The notes beneath the pieces were generated by a model. The model had not been told where the DNA came from, did no database searches, and saw only the letters and a list, made by a program, of their open reading frames with translations. Both the position numbers and the translations under genes were made by a program. A stretch of 64,000 bases of DNA from Tubulanus polymorphus (taxonomy: Eukaryota; Animalia; Nemertea), in the NCBI RefSeq assembly GCF_964204645.1, contig NC_134030.1:17568210-17632209 (forward strand), read 5' to 3'. This document shows, piece by piece, positions 10,141 through 58,499 of this stretch. Each line of letters begins with the position of its first letter. The first letter of the stretch is position 1.

Positions 10141-10173
10141 AGTGAACCACAGCTAGATTTTCGTAGTATTTGA
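6574..10173 (+). pseudogene. pol: Gypsy pol (aspartic protease, RT, RNase H, integrase), disrupted
   Basis: ALIDTGAQVT; LDLKAGYW; MPFGLTNAPSTFQR then TAA at 7936; LVFIDDILIFS at ~7982; LHTDAAHDGLGA; HSDQGPAFES and GAVERFNGTL integrase core. Confidence 0.95.
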
Positions 10174-12880: not shown

Positions 12881-14781
12881 GTGTTTAGAAGTTTTTTTGA
12901 AAACATAAATTTCAAAATTTCAGCCAACCATCAACGTCGATTACACCTGCACCAGAGCCGTCTGCTCCAGCAGCACCCGTAGCACCGGTAGCAGCACCTG
13001 CCGCACCTGCAGTGCCTGCCGCACCTGCCGTCTCTGCTCAGCTGCTCACAGCCGGTCGCATAACCGAATCGTTGATCGCGAATACGGTCACCACCGAGCT
13101 GCCCTCTGGTGTCAGGAAAGTTTAACAATGTGTTTCCATGCCTACATACCACACTTTAGTTGGTAGGCATGGAGACATATTGTTTAGCTTTCAAATCATG
13201 GAGTCACTTTTCTCTCGTGAACCCCTATTAATGATTAATGCAGACTTTCTGGTCGTAATAAGACTTCTATCAGGTATGTACCATCAAAACTTACTGAGCT
13301 AAGATGAAATTCTTAATAGGACCAGAAAGGACTGGCAGTCGACCTAAACCATTGTTTTCTAATCCAGTCATCACTGTATTGAGATATGGCAGAAAAGTCT
13401 TAGAGTGAAAGGGGCTTTAAAGAGAAAAGTGGTTAAACTTCAGTTGGTAGGCATCGAAACATATTGTTAAACTTTCAAATCATGGAGTCTCTTTTCTTTA
13501 TTCAACCCCTTTCAACGAGGACTTTTTGCAATCCTTCCATAAAGTGCAAAATGGACTAAAATCAATGTTTTAGGTCGACTACCAGTCCTTTCTGGTCCTA
13601 ATAAGACTTTTATCAGGTATGTGCCATCAAGGAAAGATAATAGTTTTTAGTGAAAAACCGAAAATTCGGATTCTTAATAGATTTTAAATAAAGTTTTGAT
13701 ATTTTTGAAAGATTTTTCGATCTTGTGGGATTTATATGTTAGACATAAGGAATATTTTGTTGCGACGATTAATTGCAAGTTTTTTTTCTAATCTAAGGAA
13801 ATGATGAAGAAAATTCTGACGGAACTCGATAAGTTGAGATAGTTGCACCAGCAACAGCTGTCCGAAATCCGGCACAATACCGAGTTGACACTCGCCGAGA
13901 TGCGGCAGAGTTTCGAGGCCGATAGACACGCGGCGCTCAGTGAATTACGCCGCACTCTGGAGGTCGAAGCCGCTAAAGCCGTCAACGAAGCCAAGAAAAA
14001 ACAATGGGTGAGTTTGGGGTGCTTGAACGCCCGGGTCTACTCAGCATCGATGATCAATCATCGGGGTAAAATCATTCATAGCATGAAGAGACCATGATTT
14101 CAGTCAGAAATAAGAGTGATGAATGATTCTTCAGACTTAACCCGTTCAGTGCGTCTACACCACAGTGTATTGATGTTATTAGTAATTAGATTGCTTTTAA
14201 GGGAGCATCTCAAAATTTCTATAGTTCCGTCAATTGGAATAACTGTCTAATTGGTTTTAACCACCCCACCCCCACCTTTGATTAGACACATGCCAAAGTT
14301 GGAACTATTGATTGTTCTAATCTAAGACCATAGACAAAGATAACGAGTGTTCGATCAACCTATTAAAACCCATTAAGCTCTAATAGACTTTATAAACAAA
14401 TTTAAATATATACAAAATACCAATAGACAGTTAAATCTACTGCTTGTATATTTGAAACTGTAATTCATTTCAATGTTATCTTTATTGAAACTGGGCCCAG
14501 CATTTTTGGGTATTAATTTGTCAGCATTGAAAGGGTTAAAGTCATGTCTTGATTCAAAGTTTTGGTTCAAGAAGATTTCTAGAAAGAACGCGGCAATTTC
14601 AGTAACAAGTTTGTGAGGTTTTATAAAGAGTTTTTTCTCTTCTCGTAACAGTGCGCGAACTGCGGTAAAGAGGCGATATTCTACTGTTATTGGAACACGA
14701 GTTACTGCGACTACCCGTGCCAACAGCAACACTGGTCGAAACACATGGCGACGTGTACGCAAGCTGTCAGCGAAACCGACC

Positions 14782-14957
<176 letters not shown>

Positions 14958-15181
14958 ACGACCACCGTGGTGCCAACTACAACGATTACCCAACAGCCGA
15001 TACAGGCTACGATATTGAACGGGCCGGACAAACCTCCGGATGGTTCAATACAGATTATAGGTCAACCTAGAGTAAGTTGTGAATAACTTCATCGGGTAAG
15101 ATACCTCGTACGCTCGGACAAGGGGAATCAACGAGGAATTAAAACTCACCGTTAGTAAATTAAGAAGATATTAAGTACCTA

Positions 15182-32700: not shown

Positions 32701-33200
32701 GATTATCAGGTTCCAAAAAGTCTGGCATACAAGCGGTGTGAGCATTAAAGTCACCAGAAATTAACACATTGAAATCATACTCAACTTTCAATTGCAATAA
32801 CTCTATTTCAATTTCTCTGATAGCTATTTCTGAATAATAACGACTATTTTCTGGAGGAATATAAATTACACCTAAAAGTACATGTTTGTCGCGATTAAAT
32901 AAATCTTTATCTAATAAATACCAAGATACAAACTGAGAGTCAGTCGAAATTGGTTTTATTTTATTTTTCATGAACTTCCTATATATGATACCGACGCCAC
33001 CTGATCCTTTTTTTGAAGATTTTTTCCTATTTTTAAAGTGCGCCATATGGGAGGCGGGCAAGCTACAACCTAAATTACCGTCTAAATCATCTAAGTGAGT
33101 TTCAGTTAGACATGTGATGTCATTATTGCTAATAAATTCACAGAATTCTGGGATATCGAGTTTAGCTATAAGGCCACATACATTCAGCGTAGAAAACTTT
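29733..33200 (-). CDS. LINE ORF2 (APE endonuclease, RT, C-terminal Cys/His motif); one frameshift at ~32670
   Basis: STLNVCGL..TCLTETH, SGDFNAHT, VIDYF, SDGHNPI; NYRGITL, QAGFR, FVDFKKAFD, GLRQGENLSPILF, LYADD; CPTC..GDESHFLFDC. Confidence 0.93.
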
Positions 33201-33535
33201 AATGATGATTTGATACAAGGAATTTCACTTATGTTTGCTGCGTTTGCTGTACTAGTTAAATTTTGCTTATTTAAATCAGAAGTGTTAATATTTCGCTTAT
33301 TTACATCAGAAATGAAATTGTTAGGAGTTACATCAGGTACATGATTGTTACTATTTACATCAGGGTATGTATCTACCGTATGAGAATTTACATGCGAGCC
33401 AACGATATCTGTATTTACATTTGGATAACTGTCACATAAATTTACACTATTTACAAATTCTATAACATAACAACAACTTCGAGATACAAGGACAGTCCGG
33501 TCTACGAATTGTACGCAAAGTCCCTCCGCTGGTTC

Positions 33536-34321
33536 CTAGTGGCTGTCCATCGGTACGCGGTCACGGTTTTCGCGGATAACGAGTTTGTCCCGTACAAAGA
33601 AAGCTTGTTTTCCGTTCGCTTTCGCAGCTCTCAGCTCGGGTAGCTTTTCGCGTCGTCTCGCCGCCCATTCCTCAGGCACCTGTTCATTCAGTCCTAAAGA
33701 CGAGCCCGGGAGATTTTTCGCAACTGAACGTACCAGTTCACGATCTTTGAAGAACTCGAATTTTGCAACAATTGGGCGCGGTTTTTTCTGTTCGTTTTTC
33801 CTTCGTCCAAGGCGATGTGTTCGCGCGAATTTGAATGAGTCCACGGTCGTCTTCGGTAACTTAAGGTCTTTCTCGCAAAAGCCTTTAATTAAGTCCTCGG
33901 TATTCTCATTTTCGGATTCCTCGACGCCGTAAAAGATCAAATTATCGCGCATGCTACGCCATTGCTGATCTAGGAGTAGTTCATGGTCCGATTTGATAAT
34001 TGCGTCCTGATCAGCGACGACTTTCTCTAAATCGCGAACTTTGCTTCTAAGTTGTTCGTTTTCACTCTTTAGTTGTAATACGTCCTGGTGGCAAAATTCA
34101 AGCGATTGTTTAACTTCGGTCATGTCCCTCTGCAAGTCGTCTAGAAGCTCTAATTTCGAAAGCTGGGAAAGAATCGCATCAAGTTTTGACGATATTCCAT
34201 TGTCTGCTTCCACACGTGATGCCGTTTCCTCAGTCGATTTATGATTCTGGCGATTCGGACGATTTGATGCTGCAGTCTTCTGCTTCTTGTTAGGGGGTGA
34301 AACACTTTGTCTTCCCGCCAT
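33536..34321 (-). CDS. LINE ORF1 (coiled coil + RRM-like RNA-binding domain)
   Basis: Heptad region, then SMRDNLIFYGVEE..RTHRLG..PRPIVAKF, typical of LINE ORF1p. Confidence 0.85.
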   Translation of the reverse strand: MAGRQSVSPPNKKQKTAASNRPNRQNHKSTEETASRVEADNGISSKLDAILSQLSKLELLDDLQRDMTEVKQSLEFCHQDVLQLKSENEQLRSKVRDLEKVVADQDAIIKSDHELLLDQQWRSMRDNLIFYGVEESENENTEDLIKGFCEKDLKLPKTTVDSFKFARTHRLGRRKNEQKKPRPIVAKFEFFKDRELVRSVAKNLPGSSLGLNEQVPEEWAARRREKLPELRAAKANGKQAFFVRDKLVIRENRDRVPMDSH

Positions 34322-34915
34322 TTTCTCCAGGTCTCACCGAATATCACACAGATTTTGTGGTTGATAAAGAAAAACAAATCGGTTAAGTTTCAATATATAG
34401 AAACGGGATTAACTGGACGCAAAGAATTAAACTAATCTAGGCCCTACGCACGTTAGTTCGTTTGTCATCAACCGGTGCGATTAGTCTTTGTCGACTATGC
34501 AATGTTAATTCGTTTGATATAAGCTAGTTTTTAGTGTCTGTCGTGGCCGAATAATTAATACTAAATTCTCAGCTAATACGGGCAAAACGCACAAAAACGG
34601 CAACGGAATATAATAGATCTAAGGTAGAAAAAATAGTTTCCTTGGATAATGTTTGTAAGTGAAATGTGAAAATTTACCTTGACGGTCGTTTAGGTAATTC
34701 AAGGAGCGCGCCGAAAGTACGTCCGCACAGTTCAGTAGATTTGGTGGCTCCTTCAATATAATATAAGCAATTGACTTCAGCGCGCAAGACAAAAATAGTG
34801 AAACGATTAAAATCAGTAAGAAGAGAACAAAAATTGAAAAGATATATGAAGTAATATTTAGTCCATATCTCACACTTGACGATGATCTTGTGTGAGATCG
34901 AATCATCGGGTTTTT

Positions 34916-37900
34916 TTAACTTGATTGCATAAATTCTCGATATATTCGATCTACATCTATTTTTACTCTCAGTCTTTTATTGAGTTTTTTAAGTTCTGAT
35001 ATGATGTTATCTCTCGTCGTATCGGGGTCGGTGCTCCAGCAGCCGATATGCAGGTCAGAAAGATGCGGAAGATTATCGATTAATTCGACGATTGATTTGA
35101 CGAATAAATCTATATCGTGCTGTGTATTAATCGGCGCTGTGCGTAAATTGCAGAACTTTAACCAGCGAATTGATGAGACGTGTTTTAGTTGTTTTAAGAT
35201 GCAATTGTCCTGTTCCGGTCTATCAAGCCCGCTATCAATACTGACTACTCGCAGCTGATTTACCGCATCTGATGATAGATACCGAACAAGTGCGTCACCA
35301 TCAGCTTCTGACCGCAATACTATTGATAATACAGTCAGCCGCGGCAGGTGAGCTAGAACGCGGTTTGATTGTAAATAAAATCCGTCAATGACAAGACGCT
35401 TTAGTTTCCGCATTAAACCGACGCTATCACTGATTGCTACATGTTGATCTGTCGTTAGTTCGCGTAGTTCGCGCAGTTCGCGCAGTTCGCGCAGTCCGAG
35501 CAATCCGAGCAGTCCTCGCAGTCCGAGCAGTCCGCGCATTTCGTACGGTTCGAACTGAATTGATTCGATGTGTGAAGATTCTAACGCGTTGTTAAAATCT
35601 TTTAATCCCTCCGAACCGATCAAATTCTTATCGAATTTTACTCCACTAAGATGTAAGCTTTTCAAACTCGGAATGATGTTTATCAGCTCTCTCATCTTAT
35701 TTCTATCGAGCTGATATCCCCGCGACCTGAGATATAGAAGTTTTAAGGATGGATACGATTTGTGAATATTGACTGAAATATTACCTAAACGTTCCGCACT
35801 AACACCAGTAACTCCAGTATCAATAATCAGACTCTCCACTGTATTGTGTGTGTTAGTATCACCACTGATCAACTGCGCGTCAGCTCCAGATTTAATCACG
35901 TGACTTGTCTTAATCCAATCATTATTGAGTTTCTTGTAACATTCACCAGTGTCGTTGAATTCATCTCGCCACACAAACCAGTTTATACTGTTACTCTTCT
36001 TACACATAGTCAAGCACTGATCGGGTATTGGTGACCACCTGCGTGTATCTATTATCATACCGTGAAGACTAGTGTTACTCGCTATGGCTTTTTCCAATAC
36101 ACGGTATTCGTCGGGTTTCAGTTCGAAAATACCTTGTATGTAAACTACCTCGATCTGACATTGTTTGTGTTCTAGTATTTTTGCGAGCGCGTTTATCCAC
36201 GATCTGCTATACGCAGATACGATCAACATTTTCTGCATGTAGGGAACTATTTCACTAATGGCGTCGTCCGGCCAGTCGGCTTCATTCAGGCATATTGACA
36301 ACTGTTCAGATAAAACAGTTCTTTCGGATCTTTCGAGTTCGATGAAGCGTTCGTAATCGGGGATGAGCGCCATCTCCCTAGTAACCGTACCCAAGAAATG
36401 GGACTTCACTATTGTGACTGCTTTTAAATGTTCATCTATTAAAGTCTTGGAAAGTTCACCGAGGCCGCGGTTATACTTGTAACGATACAGCAGCCCTGCC
36501 ATGAATCTCGGGTATAATTCACCATATTTCACAAGTTCGTCCTGTAGTTGATCAAACGCGCATTTATTCCAGGGTATTTCACCACTGTTGTTGAATTGCA
36601 CGACCGAGTGTACCGCCGCCAGAAATTCGTGCACAGATTTGTGTATGAACCGTAGCTGGACGGAGCGGTCTGATTTCCGTCGCGGCGACACCTCTTTGCA
36701 CGTCAAAGCCGTCCTCTTCGATTCGTCGAGTTTGAGATGATTTTCGCTGAAGCTGTTTTGATGCTCGATGAGCGTCTTATATGCGACTTGACAAATTTCT
36801 TTAAGCGCTTCAGAATTTTCGATGTCCCCAAAAAAACATTCCTTCGACAAGTCGAGGCCCTCGCGTTTACTGATCAGAAAACATGTCAAATCGATGTAGA
36901 TATCGGTGAGTTTTGATGGTATCGTAATTTCTTCCTCGTCCATAAACAGACAAAAAAACATATGTAGTATCAGCGGGTTGTAGTAGATACTTTCAAATAT
37001 AGGTGGCACTGCGTCTTTAAGCTTGCGGAATAGCAAATATGGATTGCGCTCGGGGAATTTTCTCTTCATAATATCGATGACTTCTTCTTGTTCGAAGCCG
37101 GATATCGATACAACGGTGAATTTGGGATCAGTGACGATCTTGCTGCCCCCGGACTCACGTGTTGTTATGACGATATGCGCTTTCGGTAATTTATTGGTCA
37201 CGTGTACGATATATTCCTTCGCTTTATCGTTTTTCAACTCGTCGAAGCCGTCTAGAAAAAATAACGCTTTTTCTGCATTTTCCCGTAAGAATTCTTTAAA
37301 ACCATCAATCGGCAGAACCTTTCTGATTTCTGGATTCAAAAGATTTTCGTAAATGTACGTATAAATACACGCGTTATCAGCGGGCAGTTCATTTAACGGT
37401 ATATAGAATAACATAGGAAACTCCGTTGTTGATGTTGTCCAGGTTAACACTTGATTAACAATCTGAGTAGTTTTACCCATACCGGGTTCACCCACGAGGC
37501 ACACGGGTTTCATAGCACGCTTGTCATGAGTGAAAAGCTTCTTGAAATCATCAGGTAAAATCACTGGCGGCTCCTCACTTTCTTTATTTTCCTTCGGGTT
37601 TCGTTTTTGGGCTCGAATTTTCGCGTGTTCTTGGGTGAAGAAGTCGTTGAAATTGGTGACGTCATCGCTCCACCAAACCTCTTTGTAATTTTCAACATCG
37701 ATCATTCGTTTATACGTTTCTTTCAGGCTCTTCTGAACTTGAGTAACATCTGTAAAAATGAATTCAGTTTGAGATTTTTTAGAATTTCTATGGCGGCTGA
37801 TTTTGCCTCAAAATCATAGAATCAGAAATTGTCATGAGCTAAAATTTTACAATTGACAGCAGTTACAAAATATGCCTATGTACCAAAGAAATACTGAGTT

Positions 37901-41068: not shown

Positions 41069-42136
41069 AGAGGCGCACACTCGACAATCTGACATCGAAA
41101 TGTAACCTGCATCGGTTTCTTTCAAGGATTTTATGTTGAGAAGCGAACAAGTGTAACATGTAAAACTTTCATTGATTAGACTAATGACATTTTAATACCT
41201 GCGCTACACTTTATCTAGACTTTCTGACGAATTCACATGATGATGAATGTTTAATATAATTAGTGATAATAGGTTTTGAAGATAAAATGATAAGAATTTA
41301 GTATATTAGAGCAGTTCAAAAGTCGAAATTTAGACACATCAGAAACAGCAATAAAGAAGCAGAAACACAGAAATCTTCTTGTGGTTAGTTTGTCGTATAG
41401 CCATTTTACGTAGAAAAAAAAACTGTGTCAGCAAAAGACAGACTTATGTTAGATATTGCAACGAGAAGACTTGTATCTTCTAAAAATGCCTGAATACTTT
41501 CTTAATTTGCTGGACCAGCGACCAGCAATCGGGAGCTCATCTATAGACCAGTGGAATATCGCGAATTCGCGCTCGCGCATACATGGAACTAGCCAGCGAT
41601 TTTTCCTTCGAGCTTTTTGAGCATTGAAATGAAACTGTTTTCCTCCCACAACCAAACCGAGGAAATTGTGAAGACAAAAAAGAATTCAAACGATATTTTC
41701 TCTAAAACGAGAACATATCACGTGGCACTTTGGATGCGTATTCTAAAATCGTACACATCGATGTAAGGGTAGGACTATTAGGTTTTAGGAGAGAAAGTCT
41801 TATGTCTGAACTCAACTAACGCATGCTTAAAGATCGCGCTCATTTATCAAAAAATAATTTTCCATCGCTTGACGTAGCGGGGAATATTGCAACGTTTCTG
41901 CTACAATCGCCTATAGTCGACAGTACTGTAACGCGCTATTCTCCTATATGATATTTGCCCTGTTTTGCACCTAAATCTACTCTACTGCCTTTATGTATTG
42001 TTAAATCTTTGAAGTCTAGATTAATGTTCCCCTCGTTGTCTACTTTCGATGAGTAATTGGAAAAGTGGGCTTTCAGATCAGAGGGCGAGAGGGCAAGACA
42101 CCACTCATCACCACAAGTAATTTTTTTCCCTAATAA

Positions 42137-45100
42137 ACGGGGGAGAATGAATACCAGCCAGAAAACAATAATGTTAATAAAAATCAATATTATTGCACAT
42201 ATTGTAAAAAATACGTCGATACATCTCATAAAACACGACATGAAAAAACTGCAAATCATATAAAAAATGTAATAGATTTTGAAACTCCAGAAAATTCCAA
42301 TGAAAGAAAAGAAAGATTAGAAAATATGAATGTGGATGAAATAAAATGTGAAGTTTGTAATGAATTTATAGTAAAAAGGAATTATAATAGACATCTCGAA
42401 TCACAAAAACACAAACAAAATTTAAGTAATAATGTTTTAGGAAAAGATTATTTCGATGATTAACCTCAAAAAGTAATAAAACCAACTTCAAAAACTAAAT
42501 CCATTTCAAATAAACCTTACATGGAAAATGTTAGAAATTATATTGATTCACTAGAAATAAAAGATACAATTGAAATTTTAGAAACATTACATAGTAAAAT
42601 TGGTCCTGCAGCTATTATATTTAGATTTTTTAAAGGTACAACAATAGAAGATTATAGTAAATTTAATGAAATAATAGAAAAAATTACTAGATCTTATAAC
42701 AGATGTTGAATATCCAAAAATTAGTATCTCTGGGAAAGTAAGTTTTATAAAGTCAGAAGAAAAGATTGATTATAATATTCAAACACACTCTGAAGAAATA
42801 ATTTCAAAAACACAAATAAAAGAAAAGTTAGAAAAAATATTTAATGAATTTAAACGTCATATTGAAGAAAGATATTTTGAGGGTTCTGGCTGAACATTGA
42901 ATGAAATTATATATTTAGATTTAAATGTTTATAATACAAAAAGAAATAAAACATCAAAAAGTAATAAAATGTTTAAAAATGATTCAAACTTTACAACAGA
43001 AAAGGATATTAAAGCATTATCTTATATTAAATTACCATTTACAACAAAAGCAGTAATAAATATTCAAAATGAAGATAATAAATGTTTTCTATGGTCAATT
43101 ATTAGTTGCTTACATCCAACACAGGAAAATGTTTGTAGAATAACAGATTATCGGAAATATGAAACATTATATAAAATTGATCAATATCCAGTAACTATAA
43201 AAATGATTTCTAAAATAGAAAAAGTTAATAATTTGAAAATAAATGTATTCGAATTAATGCAATTACCAAAGACAAAAGGTGAAAATATTAAAGATTATAC
43301 ATTGGAAGCTTTATATTTAACAGAATATTATGATGATGAAAATGCTATAGATTTGTTATATTACAAAGATGAAAATGAACATTATATGTGGTTAAAACAA
43401 ATTGATTTATTCTTTAGAACAGAAAGTGATCATCATCATACAATTTATCCATATAGAAAATGTTTATCTAAATTTATGACTGAGATTACATTATTAAAAC
43501 ATAAAGAATTATGTGATAATAAAGATTTTTGTAAATTAATAATGCCAACAGAAAAAGATTATAAATTGAAATTTACTAATCACAAATTTAAGAATATTGT
43601 TCCATTTGTAATTTATGGGGATTTTGAATCGTTGAATAAAGAATAAACTGATCAAGATAGAAAAGAAATATATAACAAAAAGCAATTATTAAAATCAATG
43701 GATAAAGGAAATGAATTAAATGAAGACACAATACAAGACCCACCAATCATAAATACAATTAAAAAAGTTCATCAAAGAGCTGCTGCTTATGGAATTTATA
43801 TAAAATCAAAATATCCTGAATTATATGAAAGTCAATATATTTCTTTTAGAGGTGAAGATGTAGTTACTGATTTTTGTAACAAAATGATTGAATTAGGAAG
43901 TGATTTTGCAAAATTAACAAAAAAACAAAAATAAAAGAATAGTTATGACAAAAGAAGATGAAATTGATTTTAATTATGCAACTCATTGATGTTATTGTGA
44001 AAAACGTTTTTATTCATTTGATAAAAAAGTTAGAGATCATGCTCATTTAAATTCAAAATATCGTGGAGCTGCTCATGAAGATTGCAATTTACAAGCTAAG
44101 AAAGTTAATTTCGTACCAATTTTATTTCATAATTTATCAGGCTATGATACCCATCTATTTATAAAACAATTATCGGGAAAATTGGGCGCAATTAATCAAG
44201 AAATAGAAGAATATAATGCTATGAATGGTGTAAAGGTAAGAAAATATGATTTTAAACTATTAGCTAAAACATCCGAAAATTATATTTCATTTCAATTTGG
44301 TTGCATTAGATTTTTAGATTCTTATAGATTTCTAGCAAGTTCATTAGATAATTTATCAAAAAGTTTAGTTGATAATGATTTTGTTATAACTCGATATTAT
44401 TATCCAAATGACCAAGATTTTAAATTATTGAGATACAAAGGTGCAATTCCTTATTCATTTTATAAAACACACAATGATTTTAATGTAACAGAATTATTAA
44501 AAGATCAATTTTATGATCAATTAAAAGAGGAGTATGTGAAAGACGAAGTGTTTAATAGAACATTAAATATTTGGAACCATTTTAAGATGAAAAATCATGG
44601 TGAATTAGTTGATTTATATTTAAAATCAGATGTTATGATATTGGCTGACATACTTGAAAAATTTAGAGAAGTTAATTTGAATCATTTTAATGTTGATCCT
44701 TGTTATTGCTACTCTAGTCCTGGTTTTACCTGGCAATGTGGTTTAAAATATACAAATGTAGAATTAGATTTATTAAAAGAACCAGATATGGTTTTATTAT
44801 TTGAAAAATCAATTAGAGGTGGAATTAGTGGTGTTATGGGAGATAGGTATTTTAAAGCAAATGATGAATATAAATTATTATATATTGACGCCAATAATTT
44901 ATATGGTTGGGCAATGATGCAACCTCAACCATATAAAAATTTTATATTAACAGAAGTTGAAAATGATGATAAAACTAATTGGGAAAGCGCAATTATGTGT
45001 TTAGAAGATGAAGCAGCAATTGGTTATTTCTTTGTAGTTGATTTAGAATATCCTGAAAATATAAAGTTTAAAACAAGAAACGTACCTTATTGCCCAGAAC

Positions 45101-47200
45101 ATTTAACCGTAGATGATAGTTATTTAAGTGAATACCAGAAGAAAAATAAAACCGAAAGATCATGTTTTTACAGAAAAATTAATACTTACTCAAAATAATA
45201 AATACAATTATATTGTTCATTATAGAATGTTAAAATTTTATCTAAAACAAGGAATGAAATTAAAGAAAGTACATAGATATATTGAATTTAATCAATCGAA
45301 GTGGTTAGAAAAATATATAGATTTCAATACTCAACAGAGAACCATATCAAAAACAGATTTTGAAAAAGATTTCTTCAAATTAATGAATAATAGTTTTTAT
45401 GGTAAGACATGTGAAAATATTAGAAATAGAAATGATATTGAATTAGTAAATAATTCTGAAAGATTAAGACATTTACAATCAAGTCCTAGACATTTAGGAA
45501 ATAAAAGATTTGAAGATTATTTAACAGCAGTTAAATTAAAAAGAACGTCAATGAAATTTAATAAACCTATATTCATTGGTTCAACTGTTTTAGAAGTATC
45601 AAAATTATTAATGTATGATTTTTATTATAATGTTTTACAACCACTTTTTGGGGAAAAGCATATTGAAATATTATGTTTTGATTCTGTAACAGCTGACACC
45701 CCAATATTGTTAAAATGTAATGATAAAATATTGATAAGAAGAATTTCATAAATAATTCAAAAACAAAATGAATGTTATATTTCATATGGTGAAAAAGAAT
45801 TAATACAAATAAATGGATTAATGGATGGTTGGACAAGAAATGGATGGAAAAAATTAAAGAATATTATTAGACATAAAACAAATAAGAAAATCTATAGAGT
45901 TAGAACTAAATTAGGGTTTGTAGATGTTACAGAAAATCATAGTTTAATTAAACGAAATGGCGAAGAAATAAAACCAACTGATATAAAAATTGGAGATGAA
46001 TTATAACATAAAAGATTTTTCCAACGAATGAATCATATGTCATTTGATGAAATAATTGACAATATTTATAACATAGAACCCGAAACTTTTGAAGAAAAAG
46101 AATATTTTATCAAAGGATTTTTCATGGGAGATGGTTCAGCAGGTGTGTATAATTATGTTTGGGGTAATAAATATTGCTGGTATTTATGCAATCAAGACTT
46201 AAAATTATTAGAAAGAATTAAGAAATTCTGTGAAGAAGTTTATTCACATAAAACATTCAAAATCATAGATGTTATGAAATCATCAGCAGTTTATAGAATA
46301 CTTGTAAATAATCCTAAAGATTTTGCTATAAAATATAATTATGAATTCATGCAATAGTGAAAAGTAATACTTCAACAAAAGAAAAGATAGTACCAGATTA
46401 TGTATTAAATGCAAAAAATAATTTAAGAAAGTGGTTCTTCATTGGATTCTATGCCGCAGATGGCACTAAAAAATTTACAAAGGATAAAAAGATAACATTT
46501 GCACAGAAAGGAAAAGTTGCTATATCAGGATTAAATATATTAAGCAGTTCATTAGGATTTAATATGAATATAGAATTAAATAAATCTAAACCAAATTGTT
46601 TTAATTTAAGGCATGTAGAAAAAGAATTAACAGAAGAAGTTAAAGATTTATTTGAAATATATAACCCATCAGATTATGTTTATGATTTATCAACTGAAGA
46701 TGGAACATTCAATTCTGGGTTCCCATTAATCCAAAAAAATACTGACAGTTACATACTAAAAATCAAGACAAATGACATAAAAAAGACTAAAAAACATTAA
46801 AACATCATTTTGATTATCCCAAAGATCATGCACTATTTAGCAATGATAATAAAAAGATTCCTGGTAAATTTAAAGATGAATTAGGGGGTGATGAAATGAT
46901 TGAATTTGTTGGGATAAGAAGTAAAATGTATAGTTATAGAACAAAAGATCATGAAGCTAAAAAGTTAAAAGGAATAACAAAACATGTGGTTGATAAACAT
47001 ATAGAATTTCAAGATTGTAATTCAATTGTAATGAAACATAAAATGAATTGTTTAAGATCAGAAGATCACGAGATGTACATTAATGAAGTTGAAAAAACTA
47101 GTTTGAATCCATTTGATGATAAAAGGCATATTTTAGATGATGGTATAAAAACATTACCTTATGGTTATCAAAACATACAATCAATATCATCATACTCGAA
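42137..47200 (+). pseudogene. polB: Protein-primed DNA polymerase B with N-terminal C2H2 fingers, an endonuclease-VII-like insert and an intein; many stops and frameshifts
   Basis: YGDFES, RDHAHLNSKYRGAAHEDCNL, FHNLSGYD, YLKSDV, IRGG, YIDANNLYGWAM, KLMNNSFYGK, FD/TDS, RSKMYSY, KLKGI. The start appears mutated to ACG at 42137, in frame with ORF 42521. Confidence 0.93.
45683..46740 (+). mobile_element. Intein with LAGLIDADG homing endonuclease at the PolB motif-C site; 2 in-frame stops and 1 frameshift
   Basis: FD|SVTADTPILL (block A), VDVTENHSL (block B), IKGFFMGDGS and FIGFYAADGT (LAGLIDADG), DYVYDLSTEDGTF (block F), LIQKN|TDS (block G, +1 Thr). Confidence 0.93.
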
Positions 47201-47226
47201 TTCACTATTGGCTTCTTCATTTTTAT

Positions 47227-48501
47227 TTAATTGTTCTTGTATAATTTGTTTAGGTTCTTCATTTCATTTATCTCATTTAAATAAAGTTCTTTCTTGTTCC
47301 ACATTTCATCTCGCTCTCTTTGTTTCTTTTTGTTTGTTAATTCGTCAAATGGAATTATAATATCGATGTTTAAATAATTTACAATCTTATTTAAAAAGAA
47401 TTCATAATTAATTGAATCTGTTATTCTATTTTCCAAATAATACATTAATATTTGTTTAAATATTTTTTTTATATTTTCCATATCTTCTTCTGTTAATTTA
47501 GGTTTTTCATAATAATCGTTAAATAATAAATATAAATACATTTTCTTTTGTTTTTGTTAAATGTTGACGGAATAATTGTTTTTATAATATCTTTTTTAGT
47601 TATTTCACCATTTTTATTTTCTATTATTTTCATTTTTTTAAGCCATTGCATATATTCTGGTGTATGATCTTCTATAGAAAATATTTTAAAAATTTCATCT
47701 AGATAATTTAATTTTGGTTCTATGAGAAAATTTCTAGTTTTTTCTTCACCCCATGAATTCTTTTGCCATCCACAATCCACAATCAACACAAAATAAAACA
47801 GTACCTTCTTGTCTTAAGGTCGCGTAATTACATTGTGGACATTTTCGTTTATAATTTATTGGTAATAGATCTTCATTAAGCTCTTGGTATTTTCTTACAT
47901 TTTCTTTATGTTTTATTGTTCTATTATGTAGATTTGAATTACTTGTTGTAATAATCAATTTACAATATTTACAATAATATGTTTTTCTTGTTAATTCATT
48001 ATATTGTTTTTCCAACTTTTCAACTGTTTCTTTATTATCTGGTAACGTTTTCTCATATTTTATTTTTTCTAATAAATTATTTTTTCTTTCATTGAATTCA
48101 GTTTCAAATTTATTAGAAATATTATCTATATGTACTTTACGAAATTGATGATTCTCCCAATCTTCTATATTTTCAGGGCTATATTTTATTCGACAAGGCT
48201 CACAGAAATGATCTTTTATATTATCCTTATCATAGAATAAGAAAGGTCTTTTCCAAATAATTTCAGGTTCAACTTCAACAGAATTACTATTACTTTCGTT
48301 ACTATCAACATTAGCCGTTGCGCCATTAATTTTACACTTCTCTGAATGTTTTTTAACATAATTTCTTGAGAATAATTTATTACATTTTGGACAGTTTAGT
48401 TTAGGGGGTTTATAATTTTCATCATGTTTTTTCATATGTCGAGCCATATTACTTTTTCTTAGAAGTTCACCACAAATTTCACATGCTATCTTCTCATCCA
48501 T
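47227..48501 (-). pseudogene. Polinton C2H2 zinc-finger ORF with downstream frameshifted segments
   Basis: CEICGELLRKSNMARHMKKH, CPKCNKLFSRNYVKKH, YCKYCK..HNRTIKH; continues through ORFs 47493-47789 and 47227-47541. Confidence 0.7.
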
Positions 48502-48559
48502 TTATTAGGGAAAAAAATTGCCTGTGGTGATGAGTGGTAATTTTTTTATGTTATAAATA

Positions 48560-49662
48560 ATGGTAGAATTAAAAGAATACAGAATATTTGTTGATTCTAG
48601 AAGACTTACAAATTATAAATCACATAATTTACTAGTACAATTAGATAGAGAATTTAAGAATCGTGTAGATTTAAAATTAGTTAATATAAGTGTATGTAAC
48701 TCATTTTACAATAAATCGGATAAAAGTTTTGAACATAGAGGGTTTATGATTTATGTGAGAAATAAAGATAAATGGTTTCATATATTTTTAAAACCAGGAT
48801 TATATAATTTAGAATCATTAGCGCAGGAAATTGATAGAAGAGCTCGGTTGAAAATCGGGGGCATTTCTGTATTTGAAATTAAATTTAATAAAATTGATAG
48901 TACTAATAAAATAAGAATAAAGATATCTAATGAACAACATAAATTTATGGTAAACAAACCACTGGCTAAAATGTTAGGAATTAAACCGCTTACAGTTACT
49001 GGAAACGCAGAAGGCAGCTCAAATATAATACCTTTTACACACTTTTATATTTTTTTTTATCATAGATTGTTTATGATTCATGATAAAAATATGGATAAAT
49101 GGTATCATCTAGACCATCAAGACCAGGATTATATACTTTAGAAACATTATCTCAAGAAATTAATAGAAGAGCTCGGTTAAAAGTGGGTGAATCTGTTGGG
49201 TTTAACATTAAATTTGATAAAATTGATAGTACTAATGAAATAAGAATAAAGTTAACTAATGAACAATATAAATTCATAGTAAGAAAACCATTAGCTAAAA
49301 TGCTAGGAGTTAATCCAAATAAAGTTTATTCAAATGTCGATCCTACGCCAAATATAATACCTTTTACGCACTTCTATATTTATTGTAATTTAATTGATCC
49401 TACAAAAACATTCGAAGCAACTAAAGATACAATTTGTAATTCTGGTTTATTAAATATTTTACCATTAAAAAATGTCAAACAATTTCGAACTCAAATAAAT
49501 TATAATTTAACTGAATGTGATTTCAAACCTTGTATTCCACATTTCAATAATTTTGAATTAGAAATAAGAAATCATAATGGTTATTTAATTGATTTGAATA
49601 ACTTTCCTGTAATTTATGAATTAGTTATAAGATGTAGAGTAATTTTTTCACTATATCAATGA
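48560..49662 (+). pseudogene. Probable minor capsid (penton) gene with an internal tandem duplication
   Basis: FYIYCNLID..LLNILP..FELEIRNHNGYLIDLNNFPVIYELVIR resembles penton C-termini; ~48740-49050 is duplicated at ~49070-49380. Confidence 0.6.
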
Positions 49663-51141
49663 ATATAACTGTTGGACCGAGTATATGTTTTGGATTTGAT
49701 TTTAAAGGTGAGAAAGAAATGAAATTTAACATTAATGATGTAATTACACATATCAAAAATATTGCATTTTCTAATGAAACAACATTTGAGTATGAAAAAA
49801 CAATAGATAAAGAAACTTTAAATGTAGAAAAGATAACTAATTTAATTAGAGAATCTTTAAGATTTTATTAATTAGATGAAGATTTTATCATAGATGATAT
49901 TAAAAACATATTAACGGAAATATATGATAATCATAAAAGTAGTAATGAAATAAATGTTGAATTAATCATCACTAAGATAACTAAATATTTTGAAGATAGT
50001 AATTTTTTTGATAAATGAATGAGTGATAATAAGTGGATAATAACTGGATTATATAATGGAGCATTACTATCAGTTGGAACTGTTGGTTATTCAATGGTAT
50101 TAAAAAAGGTCTTCAAAATGGGAAGTGTTAATGTTGATAGATTTGATATAAATGATATCTTAAAATTAACATTAGCAGTTACTTCATCTAATTTAACTAT
50201 TGATTATTTAGAAAAACAAAAATATATTCCTCCCATATAAATACATAATTTTTTTGCTAAATAAATGGCTTCTGCAATTATAACTACTATAGGATCGGCA
50301 ATTGTTAACGCTTTAGCATTTAATGGTGGCGGTTATTTATTTAAGCATATTGATAAAAATAGTTCATTAGGAGAACAAAGAAGAAATAATTTAGCATTAG
50401 AGAAATATAATAAAGCAGCAGAAGAATACAGAGAAAAACGACAAAACTATATGGATTATATTAACAAGGAATTATATGATCAGAAGATTTCACATAGAGA
50501 TTTTCAATCAGTTGATGATGCAATGAGTTTATATAACGCAGTAACCAATAAAGAAAAATTACATCTATACAAACCTAAATTATCAGATTATTATACCCCA
50601 AGTAAAGAACAACAGAAATATGAAATAATTTGGATTTTAGGTGGAACAGTTATTGTTATATTTGTAGCATATAAATTTACTAATTAGTAATTTTTTTTCT
50701 AAATAAATGGAAGATAAAGTTGATAGTATTGATATTATTCCTCATGATATAAATAAAACTAAATTAAAAATATATTTAGAAAAACAAATATTAGAATTTG
50801 AAGGTGACTTAAAGATAAAAAAGAAAAAATATTTAAAAAGGAAAATTATATATTATCTTATTATTAGTGGTTCGGTTACAATTAGTTCTGTAATAACATT
50901 TCTTGCAATATTCAGTCCATTAACACCTTTTGCTATATCAATCGGTGTATTAGGATTAAGTTCAAGTGTTTTAACTGGTATAAGTTCAAAATTAAATATA
51001 AAAAGTAATAAAGAAAAAATTAAAACTAATATAAAAGAAATTTATAAATTGAAGAATACACTAGATCATATAATAAGTTTAAATGGTCATATAACAGTTG
51101 AAGAACAAGATAAATTATTAAAAGAATTAATAAATTATTAA
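49659..51141 (+). CDS. Cluster of small Polinton ORFs (49659-, 50019-50240, 50265-50687, 50707-51141), several with hydrophobic segments
   Basis: Each follows a TAATTTTTT..(A)ATG motif; predicted membrane segments such as IIWILGGTVIVIFVAY. Confidence 0.6.
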
Positions 51142-51157
51142 TTTTTTAATTAAATAA

Positions 51158-52553
51158 ATGGTAGATGGTTTTCCAAAAGCTTCCCAATATAATAAATAAA
51201 TTAAATATAATATTCCAGCAATAGATTTTAATAAAGATATTACATATAGAAATGAAGTTTTAGATTCATTAACTAATTTAGAAATTTATGTTACTGAAAC
51301 TAATAATTTTAGTGCAAAGATGGAAAATATATTTCATGTATATTTAATTAATTTAAAAAAATTGAAAGATGAAAAACAATGGTTATTAAAATCTAATATG
51401 AAGTATTGGCAGAACCAATTAAATTTTGCTGTTTATTGTGCAACAACAGGATGTGGAATTAGTTGGAATGATCATTTGAATAATTCTAAATATGAATTAA
51501 TTCAAAGTTTATTTAGATTTCATACATACTTTCAAATCAGAATAATATTAAATGAATTAGAGTGCGCTTTACCAGGATCTAGGTATTTTAAAGAATTAGA
51601 TAATAATATTAATTTATCAAAGTTTTATAAAATTTGTAATGAATTTAATATAGATATAAATAATTCTGATTTTAAATTGGAACAATAAGATCACTTCCTT
51701 GCCCTAAAAAGATTGCAGAATATTGTGCACTTCCCATACCATCTAATAGTTTGTATAATATCTATAGTAATAAATTAGGTTATGGTAAAATAGAAACTAA
51801 GGATTTAGAAACATTAAATTTCAATAAATTACCGACATTTTATGATAATTTAAAACAAGAAAACAATAATGGTTGGGTTTATTTCATTTTAGAAAATAAT
51901 GAAGGTTTTACAAAATCAGGTATACAAAGAATAAATCAATCTATTAGAACTTATTTGATATGTATTTTAGGTGCGCAAGTTGAAACAAGATCCCCAATAA
52001 TTGGAAATTTAAATACATCATTTGATACACAGAAACAATTCAAAGTATTATTTGAAGATTCTATTCATAATGATAAAAATAGATCGATTCCAGAAAACAT
52101 TGTGAGATATCAAAATTATTTAGATAAATCACATATTAGACTAAATTATTGTATAGGCCCTAATCTATTTATTATTTCTAACGATTTAGTATTAAAGATG
52201 GGAAACATAATTGGTTATAATAATCTAATTAAAACTGCAACAATAAATAATTCATTTGGATTAAATGATATAAATAAAAAGATTATTACTGCTCCAAAAT
52301 TAATGGAAGGTGAAAAAATAAAAAACACATTCAATCAACAGAAACTAAAACTAAAAAAATTAAATTGCATAATGATTCTAAAATAAAAGATTACAATACA
52401 TCAGAAAATATAAAAACTGATAATATTCAACATGATATAATTAAAACTGATAATGATAATAAATTCCATGAAAATACTAAATTAGCTTTAACTTGTACAG
52501 GAATTGTTATAGGAGGAATATTATATTTTAAATTTTATTTTTTTATTATATAA
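51158..52553 (+). pseudogene. Polinton ORF of unknown function, broken
   Basis: YWQNQLNFAVYCATTGCGIS..LFRFHTYFQIR..YLICILGAQVETRS; hydrophobic C-terminus. Confidence 0.55.
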
Positions 52554-53467
52554 ATGGATGTAGAAGGTGGAGAAGATATTGGAATGGATCCTTTAGATGA
52601 AACTGGTATAACTGATGAATAACAACCTGATTTTAGTGAAACAAGTTTTAATGACGGTAATGAGCCAGGATATAATAATAATTTAAATATGCCTGATTAT
52701 GTTTAAAATGCAGAATCACAATTAAATCCTGAAAATTTAGACCCAGATTTAGTAAAACAAGATTTAGATAATTTAAACAAAATAGAGAAATTAGAATATA
52801 TAATTGAAAATTCTAAACTTAACATAAATGATGAAGACGTTGGACCTTTAGCAGATAAATTAAGATTTTTAGATAATGGTAAATGTTATTATCGTTTGAA
52901 AGGTGATTATTATATTGATATCTCTTATAAAAAAGAAGAAAAAATAATAGCAAAATCAACTTTAAAAAAAATTAAAACCAGATATAATTGAAATAATAAG
53001 TAATAGTAATGAAATAACTGATGTTACACAAAAAGAAATAGATGATAATATAGACGTATTTAAACAAAAAATTAATGAATTATTTGAAATAATCAAAAAG
53101 AAATCAGAAACAGAAACAACTTCTGAACAGAATAAAACTTCCAAAACTAATAAACTTAATTCAAATAAAGTTCCAATTGAAAAACTTTTACCGAATGGAT
53201 TAATTGATGCAACAGATCAAGAATTAGAAGATTTAAATAATATATTTTCTGATAAAGCAATTAGAGAAATTGAAAGTATAAGACATGCATCTGATAAAAT
53301 TGCGCATGATAAAAGTATAAGAGATTTAAAAATTAGAACTTTAGAAGATGAATTATTTAAATCAAGAAAAGAATCGGAACAAGTAAAATTAGATAGAGAT
53401 AATAAAGTTAAAGATAAAATTGCGCATGATAAAAGTATAAGAGATTTAAAAATTAGAACTTTAGAAG
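52554..53467 (+). pseudogene. Acidic/coiled-coil Polinton ORF, truncated by a rearrangement
   Basis: ATAAATG start; stops at ~52619 and ~52704; ends in a 55-bp direct repeat. Confidence 0.45.
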
Positions 53468-54436
53468 TTTTCTCATTAGATGATTATAATTTATTTATGC
53501 ATTATAAAGATTTATGGTTAACTAAAGAAAATAGAAATAATATGATATTTCAGGGTATTCAATCGGAAAGCCATAATAAAATAAGATCAGGAGCTAATGA
53601 CGCAATAGTCACTCGTGCCACAGATAAATTGATTAAAAAGATTTATGGAAGCAAATATAAAATTCCATTAGACTTTGAATTGATAAATAATAATGCACCT
53701 TTATATAAATACGCAATTCAAGAAGATATTATATTTGAGATAACATTTGCTCCTGTAAATGAAATTGTATTATCTAGCGTTGTTAAAGATATGGGTTATA
53801 AATTATCAAATATATGTTTAGAATATGACACAGTAACTAATGAAAATATTGCTAGCACAATTCAAACTCAATACAATCAAGGATTTTCATTATTTTATGA
53901 TTATATTGATAAATTTAAAACTGTAACTATTAATGCAAATTATTCTCAAATGAATTAATGAGAATACTAACTTCCCAAGAAGATCTATTAAAGGTATATT
54001 AATATTTTTTACCATTGCAACAAATTCTAATGGCGCAATAAAGGTTGATAATTATTATAATCCTGAAATAACAAAAGTAGAAATAACTATCGAAGGAATA
54101 GCAAATAAAATATTTTGTCAAGGAATGAGAATGATAGATCAGTGGCCAGAAATTAGAAAACATTTTATGAATGAAAAAGTAAAATCATTTGAAAATTGTA
54201 ATATTAATCAAATTGATTATTATACCGGCAATAAATATGCATTATGGTTAGATTTTAGAACAACAGAGGATAATTCATTACATGGTTCTGGGAAAAAACT
54301 ACAAAATACTAAAGATGGAATACAATTATTCATGACAAAGAATAAAGGAATCAAAAATTTCAAAATGCACATTTATATTATATCTGACGCACAATTAAAT
54401 ATTGTAAATTCACAATTAGATAGTATTCAATATTAG
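53468..54436 (+). pseudogene. Probable major capsid protein, N-terminus deleted
   Basis: YKDLWL..IPLDFE..LSNICLEYD..PRRSIKGIL..YNPEITKVEITIEG..KYALWLDFR..LHGSG..DAQLNI: beta-rich, recalled as Polinton MCP-type, and placed next to integrase and ATPase. Confidence 0.65.
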
Positions 54437-54466
54437 AAATATAAAGTTAAAATTAAGGATATATAA

Positions 54467-55595
54467 ATGGGTGGTAAAAAAACTCCTAATACTAAAGAAC
54501 AATATTTAAGAAATTTATATTACAACCCTGAGTGTTCGGTTGCTTATTCTTCTACTAAAAACATATGGCGTCAAGTAAAACAAGATAAATTAGATAAGAT
54601 AATCCCACAAAATTTAGTTAAATATAAAGATATAAATGAATTTATGTTAGAACAACCAACATACACAACACATAAAAAAAATTGTTAGAAAATATAAAAC
54701 TCGTAAAACTATGGTAAGTCATGTAGATCAACAGTGGCAAGGAGATTTAATTGATATGAAAAATGTTAAGAAAGATAATGATGATTATTGGTGGTTATTG
54801 AATATAATTGATATTTTTAGTTGTTATGTATGGAGCTTCCCACTTTATAGAAAAGATGCTGTACAAACATCAAATTTTTTAAGAAAATTTCTTTCGGATG
54901 ATAAACTAAAACCAGAAAAAATACAATTTGATGATGGAAAAGAGTTTGATAATTCACTTGTTCATGAACTCTTAGATAATCATAATATTAAATATTTTTC
55001 AACAAAATCGGATAAAAAAGCAGCAGTTGTTGAACGATTTAATAGAACATTAAGAACAAGAATGTGGAAATATTTTACAGCAAATAATACTTTTTAATGG
55101 ATTGATGTTTTACCAAAATTGATAGAAGGATATAATAATTCTTATCATTCTTCTATTGGAATGAAACCTATTGATGCTAGAAAACCTGAAAATGCTGAAA
55201 TTGTTTGGAATAATTTATATGGAGCATTTCTTGTAGATGATTTTGGTGAACCTAAATTTAAAGTTGGTCAAAATGTTAGAATTTCTAAGTATAAAAAGAT
55301 ATTTGACAAAGGATACGATCGAAATTTTACTAGGGAAATATATAAAATAAAAAAGGTAATAACAACAAAACCATATGTCTATAAATTAGAAGATTTAGAT
55401 GGTGAAGAAGTTGATGGCTACTTTTACGAAGAAGAATTAAGTTTAACTACTGAAAATCTAGAACAAGAATATAAAATTGAAAAAGTATTAAAAACAAAAA
55501 CTATTAAAAGAAAAAAATATTCTTTAGTAAAATGGGTTGGATGGCCAGATAAATTCAATGAATGGATATTATCAAGTAAAATTAAAAATACATAA
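54467..55595 (+). pseudogene. Retroviral-type (rve) integrase with C-terminal chromodomain; frameshift at ~54685, stop at 55095
   Basis: QWQGDLIDM, IIDIFS, IQFDDGKEF, AAVVERFNRTL; EYKIEKVLK..SLVKWVGWPDKFNEWI. Confidence 0.92.
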
Positions 55596-56021
55596 ATGAA
55601 TAAGGAATTATTCATATTTGAGCCTCATAATATGTTAATTTCTGGTGTAACAAATTGTGGAAAAACTTATTTTATATTAAATTTATTAGAAACTGTTTAT
55701 AAAAACTGTTTTGATAATATAGTATTATTTTGTCCAACATATGAATTTAATCAAACTTATGATAGAAATATTACTAGAAATAATAAATTTATTATATTAG
55801 ATCCTAAAACAGTAAAAGAAAATTTAGATAATTGTATTAAAATAGCAATTGATATTTATAAAGGATCAAATACATTATTCATTATAGATGATTGTGCTAA
55901 TCTACATGATTCAAAAGTTAGAGAAAGTGAGTTATGTTATTTAGCTTTTTCTGGTAGACATTTTGGGATAACAACATGGGTTTTAAATCAAAAATATAAT
56001 TCAATTGTTAAAGACTTATGA
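55596..56021 (+). pseudogene. A32/FtsK-like packaging ATPase, C-terminally truncated
   Basis: ISGVTNCGKT, FIIDD, SGRHFGIT..LNQKY. Confidence 0.88.
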
Positions 56022-56030
56022 ATTTATTTA

Positions 56031-56305
56031 AATTCAACTAGCTTGTTAATCTAGTTGAATTCTAGTTACATTCTAGTTGAATTCTAGTTATTGGTAGTTG
56101 GAACAAAATCGACTAGATTTAACAATATTTTAACTAGCTTGTTAATCTAGTTTAATTCTAGTTACATTCTAGTTGAATTCTAGTTGTTAGTAGTTGAAAC
56201 AAAAATCAACTAGATTTAACAAGAAATAAACAAAAACAACAATATTTCAACTAGCTTGTTAATCTAGTTGAATTCTAGTTACATTCTAGTTGAATTCTAG
56301 TTGCA
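56031..56305. repeat. Three ~100-115-bp CTAG-rich repeat units replacing the ATPase 3' end
   Basis: caactagcttgttaatctagttgaattctagttacattctagttgaattctagtt occurs three times with minor variation. Confidence 0.85.
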
Positions 56306-56334
56306 ACAACACAACTAATTTATTTGTTATACAA

Positions 56335-57230
56335 ATGGTAGGTGAAAAGAAAATAAAATCTAAAAATGGTGATGTTCCAATTGAAAAAACTTTAGATGAT
56401 TTAGGAATAAAAGAAAACAAATTAATTCCAGATGATGGTGCTTTAAATAATGTTACAACAAATAATAATTATGAATATTATCTTTATTGTAAACATCAAT
56501 TAGAAATAATAATAGCATCTGGAAAATGTAAAAATTTTGTCGGTAAAAATTTAACTTATAATGAATTAGATACAATGAAATCAGATGAAATTATTAGATT
56601 ATTTAAGATTTATGAAGCCGCGAGAACAGCTAGAATTAATGACGCGATATCAGAAAATGTAGTAAAAGGTTATAGCAAATTATGTAATTATATATTACCA
56701 ATTGAAGATGAAAATAGATTATATGCTGATTTAAAAAATGATTATTTAGTTATGACTGAATTAAATAAATGGATTGGATATTTATCATTTCAATTAGGTG
56801 GATTTATGACATTATTATCAACTGGGGTTATAACATTTTCAAATATTGAAAGTAAAAATATTTCTATAATAAGTGAGCGAGGTGGAAGAAGTGAAGAAAA
56901 AACCGAGATCACAGAAACAAATTGAATGGTCTCGGCAATTAGGAATTAAATGACAAGAATATAAAAAAGCTTTAAAAGAAAAAATAAGTAATAAAAATGT
57001 TAATAAAAATAGTGAAAATATTGTTATTTCTAATCCTTCTAATGATAGAATATTTGATAAATGTCTATATTTTACAGTTGGATTTGTAATTGTATTCATT
57101 TTGATTGGGTGTAATTGGTATAAGAAGTCAAATAAAATTCATGATATTAATAATTCTGATACAACTGCTATCAAAAATGAAAATACTTCTGAAATTCCAA
57201 AATTGACAATAAAAAAATGGATTAATATTT
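56335..57230 (+). CDS. Two Polinton ORFs of unknown function (56335-56925; 56926-~57230, broken)
   Basis: ORF track; both contain hydrophobic segments. Confidence 0.5.
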
Positions 57231-57384
57231 TAGAAAAAAAGCAAAAAAATAATTTTTTTAATTAATTGAATATTAATTGAATAGCTCACTACTTTTTTCT
57301 ATCTATGCGGAGCAATTAAATTTTCCAGATAAGTCATTTCGGATTCTAGATATTCATTATTTTAATTAATTTATTTTTTTAAAT

Positions 57385-57710
57385 TTAATCAACAATTTCT
57401 AAATCATGATGTCCATCTTCATTTTTTCCATGATAGATTATTTTAAATCCTTCTAAATCTTTTAATTCCTCTGTACTCAATGAAACCCATTTATCAGGTA
57501 AAAATACTTTAAATTCTCTCGATGTACTAACATTACAGTAGCTTAAATTAGCTGATACTTTCTCTCCATATTTAGTTTTTATCTTTTCTAATTTCAATAT
57601 TTTATGTTCAATTTCTTTTGTAACATCAACTAACTTTTTTATTTCAAATTGTTTTTTGCTGGTTTTATTCTGTTATTTATTGTTGCTAAGAATGCTTTTC
57701 TATCTCCCAT
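57385..57710 (-). pseudogene. Small Polinton ORF, possibly OB-fold/ssDNA-binding; one internal stop
   Basis: ATG at 57710 follows the TIR-like promoter motif; KIKTKYGEKV..FKVFLP. Function is a guess. Confidence 0.35.
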
Positions 57711-58499
57711 TTATAAGGAAAACAAATTACTTGTGGTGATGAGTGGGGATTACTTCCCCCTGTATATAACAAACACGCTATTAACCGTTCTCACCCAAGC
57801 CTCACAGCATCTATTTATCTGGGCACAGTTGACACGCAATCACTGTACTACAGTAATAGCCCACGCGTTAATAACCGTTCTCAGTAGAGACTCACTGTAT
57901 CGATCTATCCACGCGCAGCTGTTGTTACCCGCACTCACTGTATATGTGTATCACAGAGCAATCGTCCGTTCTCACTAGAGCCTAGCTGTGATGAGTGGTG
58001 TCTCATACTCAATTGAATTATTACTTGTGGTGATGAGTGGTGTCTCGCCCTCTCGCCCTCTGATCTGAAAGCCCACTTTGCCAATTACTTCGATGGATAC
58101 CAAACTTTAAATGATACTGAAAATAATGCCGCTGTTTATAAACTTTTCAAGTCACAGCTATTTTCACTAACGTTCCCATTATATGTAGCAATCCTCCACG
58201 TAATATCAATTATGTCTGATATTGTGCAACTCGATACTAACGACTATAGCCGCGATCACGGGGAGACGATTTGACCCGGGCGGCCAAATTGGCACGGATC
58301 AGCTCCGAGTCAAATTTGGCCCGTGCTTAATTTTAGAGAGCGCATTCGCACGCAAACCATTCACTCGATACTAAACAATGCTTAAACAAAGCGAAGTGGA
58401 TCATTTCCGGTACCAGTTGCAATTCACATGCTTAAATTTTGACCCGGACCTGGTCCGACGTTTTTGGTCGAGCCAAATTGGGCGTACTGATCCGCAGCA

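Follow-up and report, generated by a model that had tools for sequence, protein, structure and literature searches.

The window, a 64,000-nucleotide stretch of contig NC_134030.1 of Tubulanus polymorphus (GCF_964204645.1), harbors a 16 kb Polinton (42052-58089) with 70-nt terminal inverted repeats which are 97% complementary and give the element AGT...ACT ends. Its identification as a Polinton is based on the inverted repeats, a 6-bp target-site duplication and genes, recognized by Pfam comparison, for a protein-primed DNA polymerase (pPolB), an rve integrase and a packaging ATPase (Table 1). Most genes of the element are broken. The intact relatives P0003 and P0089 open with zinc fingers similar to that preceding the PolB pieces. 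The GC contents of the intein described below, the PolB and the element are 25.0%, 24.6% and 24.2%, respectively, compared to 37-43% in the flanks.

Table 1. Features of the intein-bearing Polinton, with positions counted from the first nucleotide of the window (a slash marks the intein insertion point)
Feature	Position	Strand	Evidence and remarks
Left target-site duplication TCGATG	42046..42051		Same 6-mer at 58090-58095
Left terminal inverted repeat, starts AGT	42052..42121		70 nt, 97% complementary to 58020-58089
Zinc-finger ORF, probably PolB gene start	42137..42463	+	zf-U1, E 1e-6
Protein-primed PolB N-extein, several stops and frameshifts	42464..45682	+	PF03175, E 5.6e-15 over 43990-45195; ORF pieces
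Intein, Hint domain with two-motif LAGLIDADG endonuclease inserted	45683..46740	+	Stops at 45749 and 46004, frameshift near 46345-46357
PolB C-extein starting TDS	46741..47170	+	Frameshift near 46780-46800; intein-free relatives read IMYFD/TDSYILKIKTN
Zinc-finger ORF	47746..48501	-	zf-U1, E 4.8e-7
Minor-capsid-like gene, partly tandem-duplicated	48557..49662	+	Atlas 0.96 to Sputnik V18/19 cluster, recognition just under threshold
Major capsid (double jelly-roll)-like gene, frameshift near 53955, start approximate	52966..54436	+	Atlas 0.96-0.97 to MCP clusters (53954-54433), low recognition value
rve integrase with chromodomain, split by a stop	54651..55595	+	PF00665, E 1.5e-10; PF00385, E 8.3e-5
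A32-type packaging ATPase, truncated frame	55596..56021	+	PF04665, E 8.1e-11
Right terminal inverted repeat, ends ACT	58020..58089		Pairs with 42052-42121
Right target-site duplication TCGATG	58090..58095		Matches left copy

The two capsid-like genes, with Atlas values of 0.96-0.97, recognition values below the threshold and no Pfam match, are leads only, and the ORF at 52966-53955 yielded no meaningful match among PDB sequences. An adenain-type protease was found neither by Pfam among 20 ORF pieces nor by motif in six frames, searches which a decayed gene could escape. The minor-capsid-like gene contains a 271-nt tandem duplication (79%; within 48790-49389), where read depth is low. Part of the inner terminal repeat recurs at 48491-48538 and 57703-57746, just upstream of minus-strand frames, and possibly represents a promoter motif. 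Three short hydrophobic frames at 50018-51141 may resemble membrane-type accessory genes named for adintoviruses (PMC8502044). Read depth over 50005-52512 and 53767-54393 is 1.5 to 3 times that over the PolB, suggesting that a virion-gene module may be common to several subfamilies. Eighty-four reads skip 57726-58019, indicating many copies without that stretch.

Motif C of the PolB (D/TDS) is split by a 1058-nt insert (45683-46740), with ILCFD ending at 45682 and TDS starting at 46741. The insert starts with Ser1 (SVTADTP), contains a block B TxxH (TENH, 45929-45940) and two LAGLIDADG motifs (GFFMGDG, 46115-46135; GFYAADG, 46444-46464), and has in its C-terminal part the sequence VYDL with the block F Asp and the end LIQKN, a Lys-Asn without penultimate His, which is followed by Thr+1. 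Its N half exceeds the cut-off of the NCBIfam intein_Nterm model (TIGR01445; 28.9 bits vs 24.5; E 1.7e-6). Pfam comparison of the broken pieces yielded Intein_splicing (E 1.3e-5) and, in the C part, LAGLIDADG_3 (E 0.0024), both below the gathering scores, and PF14890 and PF14528 are present in open-frame relatives. The initial annotation had read the insert as a LAGLIDADG intein at the pol-c site of a Polinton PolB, a reading borne out by these motifs, the intein_Nterm match, the fold of a relative (see below) and the inverted repeats with their TCGATG duplication. It had also pronounced the copy dead after a single frameshift repair. The frameshift near 46345-46357 was confirmed, but two further in-frame stops (45749-45751 and 46004-46006) were overlooked, and the intein copy in the window is a decayed pseudogene.

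The class-1 residues (Ser/Cys1, block B TxxH, block F Asp, terminal Asn and Ser/Thr/Cys+1) are found in 7/7 full-length Polinton inteins, all of which also retain both LAGLIDADG acidic residues, while the penultimate residue is His in three and Lys or Ser in four. Against TIGR01445, the inteins of the window, P0004 and P0089 score above the cut-off, P0003 and P0005 lie just under it and P0102 has no match. In the PDB, the predicted structure of P0004 (pLDDT 82) is closest to the TliVMA and PhoVMA inteins and to PI-PfuI and PI-SceI (E 1e-15 to 1e-10), and in BFVD to PolBs of phycodnaviruses, Pandoravirus and Megavirus. A sequence search of the PDB with P0004 gave 0 matches. The structural model suggests that P0004 folds like homing-endonuclease inteins, with the I-DmoI/PI-SceI fold. 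The xxD/TDS site at motif C and the kinship with other pol-c inteins identify it as a pol-c allele. A Hedgehog-type or bacterial intein-like Hint domain is ruled out by the endonuclease, the exact empty sites and Thr+1, and a spliceosomal or group I intron by a protein frame with splice residues that is open in relatives.

The flanks of the element contain a ZMYND8-type MYND exon (14649-14765; PF24324, E 1.2e-12; PDB ZMYND8, E 5.6e-17), a Gypsy element, a LINE and a NACHT frame. The metazoan-type flanking genes suggest an animal host, and the element carrying the intein very likely sits in an animal chromosome, as had been claimed. The Gypsy-type LTR element is in pieces (5228-10173), a long CAG repeat accompanies the ZMYND8-type exon (14649-15086), and the LINE, whose ORF1 and ORF2 are nearly open, is placed immediately behind the NACHT frame, which is intronless and 963 aa long, with a 9-nt repeat (29733-37807, minus strand). 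The Polinton itself lies within another repeat (41826-42045 and 58096-58182). In ten raw reads and one contig, 41825 is followed directly by 58183, corresponding to the flanking repeat without the element and minus ~300 nt of flank. At the left junction, one mismatch-free X1 contig, from a sequencing run that the window itself may derive from, crosses by 27 nt, below the 31-nt threshold. The exact junction is backed by the target duplication more than by reads.

Further copies were sought in raw reads of a second study with the same species label (X5; ~12% of the run, 85% likeness). X6 yielded 0 contigs, which does not prove absence. In X5, the insert is covered at a mean depth of 208, and the two exteins at 418 and 344. 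Of the reads over the two stops, 222/225 and 240/240 differ from the window, and 118/169 differ in length at the insert frameshift, suggesting that the breaks are private to the window copy or to a few copies, although short reads address each site and not whole copies. Furthermore, 84 raw reads follow the window sequence exactly up to 45682 and then depart from it, and in 19 reads 45686 is joined to 46790, which indicates that intein-free copies exist under the same species label. The screen for copies with and without the intein that had been proposed thus recovered both kinds. The Polinton family of the window is high-copy and intein-polymorphic in this species, a point that had escaped the initial annotation, and filled and empty members also occur in at least two other multi-copy families.

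Besides the window, six full-length and three partial intein-containing PolBs of Polinton type were identified. A search with the N half of the insert yielded 70 longer proteins, the top three being Polinton-type PolBs with open inteins (63, 48 and 48%), of which the open-frame intein of P0003 (63%) is the closest to that of the window. A search with the P0003 intein yielded 1252 proteins, the best 120 of which added P0089, P0102 and P0103. P0009, P0234 and L049 are partial or broken members, with a frameshift inside the endonuclease of L049. An intein is present in one of the nearest 120 full-length PolBs, in a search that favored intein-free ones. Three protein-seeded locus scans returned no loci, and a search of a phage collection gave one weak match. 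Motif C reads D/CDS in 22 of the 120 near PolBs, and many vary in the preceding three residues, a pattern which may reflect escape from the endonuclease. Related inteins occur in topoisomerase II at DQD/TDG, a site resembling pol-c (P0031, P0051 and P0097). P0383, a Polinton-type PolB, is labelled with a bacterial genus in UniRef, which is likely bin contamination.

A precise empty site is found in the intein-free relatives P0260 and P0372-4, and P0079 exactly lacks the insert while being otherwise 99.7/100% identical to the intein-bearing P0076. The insert is as such an in-frame insertion with a precise empty site in orthologues, as in class-1 inteins. Among the 15 listed of the 121 members of the P0004 family, five contain the intein, one has an exact empty site and nine end short of the site. 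The P0089 family has 136 members, on contigs of up to 1 Mb; among 15 listed, seven are filled, with open inteins of 346-348 aa, six are empty and two end short of the site. Both families presumably sit in large eukaryotic genomes.

Filled and empty copies thus coexist in the P0004 and P0089 families and in the X5 reads. Six empty copies of the P0089 family, which include three site variants, are 95-99% identical to P0089 outside the insertion site, differing at 9-53 of 865-1151 residues, but differ at 11-15 of the 40 residues around it, where six filled copies differ at 1-3; the 40-residue window was set after inspection of the sequences and the copies are related rather than independent. The flanks of P0079 are unchanged, showing that flank divergence is not general. 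The local divergence in the P0089 family fits co-conversion or escape from cutting, as would be expected from homing.

In a careful 34-row tree, comprising a hand-picked subset plus three loci and rooted with two topoisomerase II inteins and no archaeal ones, the seven full-length Polinton inteins form one clade (100/99) on a stem of 0.46 changes per site. This clade lies inside the 25 inteins of RNA-primed PolBs, with a sister group that holds the giant-virus MAG loci L001, L002 and L013 (88/96). The same two groupings were recovered in a 58-row quick tree (support 100 and 95), which omits three long and two partial rows of a first 63-row quick tree; with these long-branch and partial rows included, support for Polinton monophyly was 45 and the sister group was unresolved. 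A tree forcing the RNA-primed-PolB inteins into one clade was rejected (p-AU 0.014), which, with the nesting, supports the direction of transfer claimed at the outset, from NCLDV PolB to Polinton PolB. The window intein shares 38-40% identity with those of the three giant-virus MAG loci, while the corresponding exteins can hardly be aligned (E 0.018-0.40). The shared C-terminal motif was found in IMG/VR at 15 loci, all YGD/TDS polymerases (15/15) and 13/15 named GVMAG, and among 42 metagenome loci recovered by motif, 41 were giant-virus-like or of another RNA-primed type and one, L049, was of Polinton type.

Sequence comparison thus supports giant-virus PolB inteins as the nearest non-Polinton kin of the window intein. 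The especially close likeness to a giant-virus intein that the initial annotation put forward is not supported as stated, the closest kin being other Polinton inteins: among 185 full-length inteins compared to that of the window, the top six are the six Polinton ones (63-40%), followed by RNA-primed-PolB inteins at ~40%, and no giant-virus intein exceeds 41%. One old capture from giant viruses, with subsequent spread and loss among Polintons, is likely from these data.

In a 62-row extein tree, seven of the eight intein bearers fall in one 19-row subgroup (support 100), mixed with intein-free kin. Intein presence requires seven changes for the eight bearers, no fewer than in shuffles. Within the main subgroup the intein and extein trees branch alike, and intein and extein identities track each other among the six full-length Polinton inteins other than P0005. 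The matching branching and identities suggest long co-descent with loss or re-invasion, although the tracking of six inteins fits plain vertical descent with losses equally well. P0005 contains a PolB of another motif type, with extein matches of E 3e-5 or worse, yet its intein is 40-47% identical to the others, suggesting a jump between Polinton lineages; its position inside the other Polinton inteins is statistically insecure (p-AU 0.15).

We consider it probable that a LAGLIDADG intein was captured once, long ago, from a giant virus into Polinton pPolB and has persisted there by splicing and homing. By analogy with known inteins, Ser1, the block B Thr and His, the block F Asp, the terminal Asn and Thr+1 would allow the intein to be excised and the DxD rejoined, so that an intact copy would still yield a working polymerase. 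The endonuclease would cut the empty motif C site in other copies, either in the chromosome or while a Polinton replicates. Repair templated by a filled copy would then bring in the intein together with short flanks, the many copies in one nucleus serving as potential donors and targets. The capture from a giant-virus PolB would have been followed by long co-descent with repeated loss or re-invasion in one subgroup, and the intein would have jumped at least once into a distantly related Polinton polymerase. The intein likely still spreads between transposon copies.

A history without homing, in which an ancient capture was followed only by inheritance and occasional loss and the intein-free copies are other subfamilies or recombinants, would explain the agreement of the intein and extein trees and identities in the main subgroup, the single intein among the nearest 120 full-length PolBs and the broken endonuclease of L049. 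We regard it as unlikely, as catalytic motifs are kept over ~55% divergence while many giant-virus relatives shrank to 190-280 aa, near-identical copies diverge locally at the site, and the intein is present in the distant P0005 polymerase. The old capture with homing remains our preferred reading, also over a recent transfer during virophage-like co-infection of this animal with a giant virus, as the initial annotation had envisaged. Giant-virus inteins are indeed the nearest outside kin, and Polinton-like viruses are described from entomopoxvirus occlusion bodies of insects (PMC11296320). The stem of 0.46 leads to a Polinton-only clade, however, the intein follows the PolB tree in one subgroup, its GC content equals that of the PolB and element, and the 185 full-length inteins compared include none from giant viruses above 41%; a protist could also have been the place of capture, or an endogenous giant virus its source. 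The locus in the window therefore gives no sign of a recent co-infection or of a virophage-like link in this animal, and we consider a recent transfer of this kind highly improbable.

Slightly more improbable still is an assembly artefact or contaminant, in which DNA of a giant virus or a protist would have been fused to an animal scaffold. The element differs from its flanks in GC content (24% vs 37-43%) and no read pair was shown across the exact junction, but the inverted repeats and the perfect 6-bp duplication mark an integration, raw reads of the second study with the same species label span the whole element and intein, and the many private mutations are those of an old genomic copy.

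Among the closest described systems are the pol-c (YGD/TDS) PolB inteins of Nucleocytoviricota, such as that of Mimivirus R322 (PMC549080), which occupies the same catalytic-motif site, is 351 aa long compared to ~352 here, and shares Ser1, the terminal Asn, Thr+1 and the LAGLIDADG type. In contrast to giant-virus pol-c inteins, the host here is a protein-primed PolB barely alignable to the giant-virus enzyme, in an integrating multi-copy element; a jump between such dissimilar polymerases by direct homing was called implausible in the same source. Viral-like DNA polymerases with inteins were also reported (PMC10710043), the nuclear scaffolds concerned being from Klebsormidium, Tetrabaena and a labyrinthulomycete; these are likewise virus-borne PolB inteins in eukaryotic chromosomes, compared here by description, but their hosts are algae and a protist, and neither Polintons nor animals appear in the main text of that paper. 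Nuclease domains of the HNH and VSR types were described in Polinton PolBs of nematodes, oomycetes and molluscs (PMC10748475) and later interpreted as possible 'intein invasions' (PMC11161782, in the part covered, citing the former). These are likewise endonucleases in animal Polinton PolBs, whereas here a complete intein interrupts the active site; the main text of PMC10748475 contains no mention of intein, Hint or LAGLIDADG and reports no splicing motifs. With Polintons/Mavericks and adintoviruses, as far as PMC8502044 was covered, the element shares inverted repeats, pPolB, rve integrase, packaging ATPase and capsid-like genes, but inteins have 0 mentions there and the adenain protease was not found here. 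The 2018 eukaryote survey lists 0 inteins for Metazoa and no Polintons in the part covered (PMC5784728), and the portions of PMC12220804, PMC3671162 and PMC13768754 covered hold nothing relevant to Polinton inteins. The literature searched, mainly of open access, yielded no description of a Polinton PolB with an intein. The intein at this locus is of a known allele class, for which we found no report from this class of host protein, this type of mobile element or this kingdom.

The locus and its relatives place a complete intein in a multi-copy element of an animal-type genome, and indicate that homing inteins can move from one polymerase to another that has little in common with it besides the DTDS motif. 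The Polinton intein can as such be regarded as a molecular fossil of an encounter of Polintons with giant viruses. Whether it represents a working homing intein of animal nuclear genomes, derived from giant viruses, which drives between germline Polinton copies, selects endonuclease-resistant versions of the active-site region of the polymerase and crosses between distant Polinton lineages, is a broader proposal to which we assign even chances. As the intein blocks the active site, intact copies that carry it offer a test of whether Polintons use their own polymerase for replication, and of whether homing runs in an animal genome.
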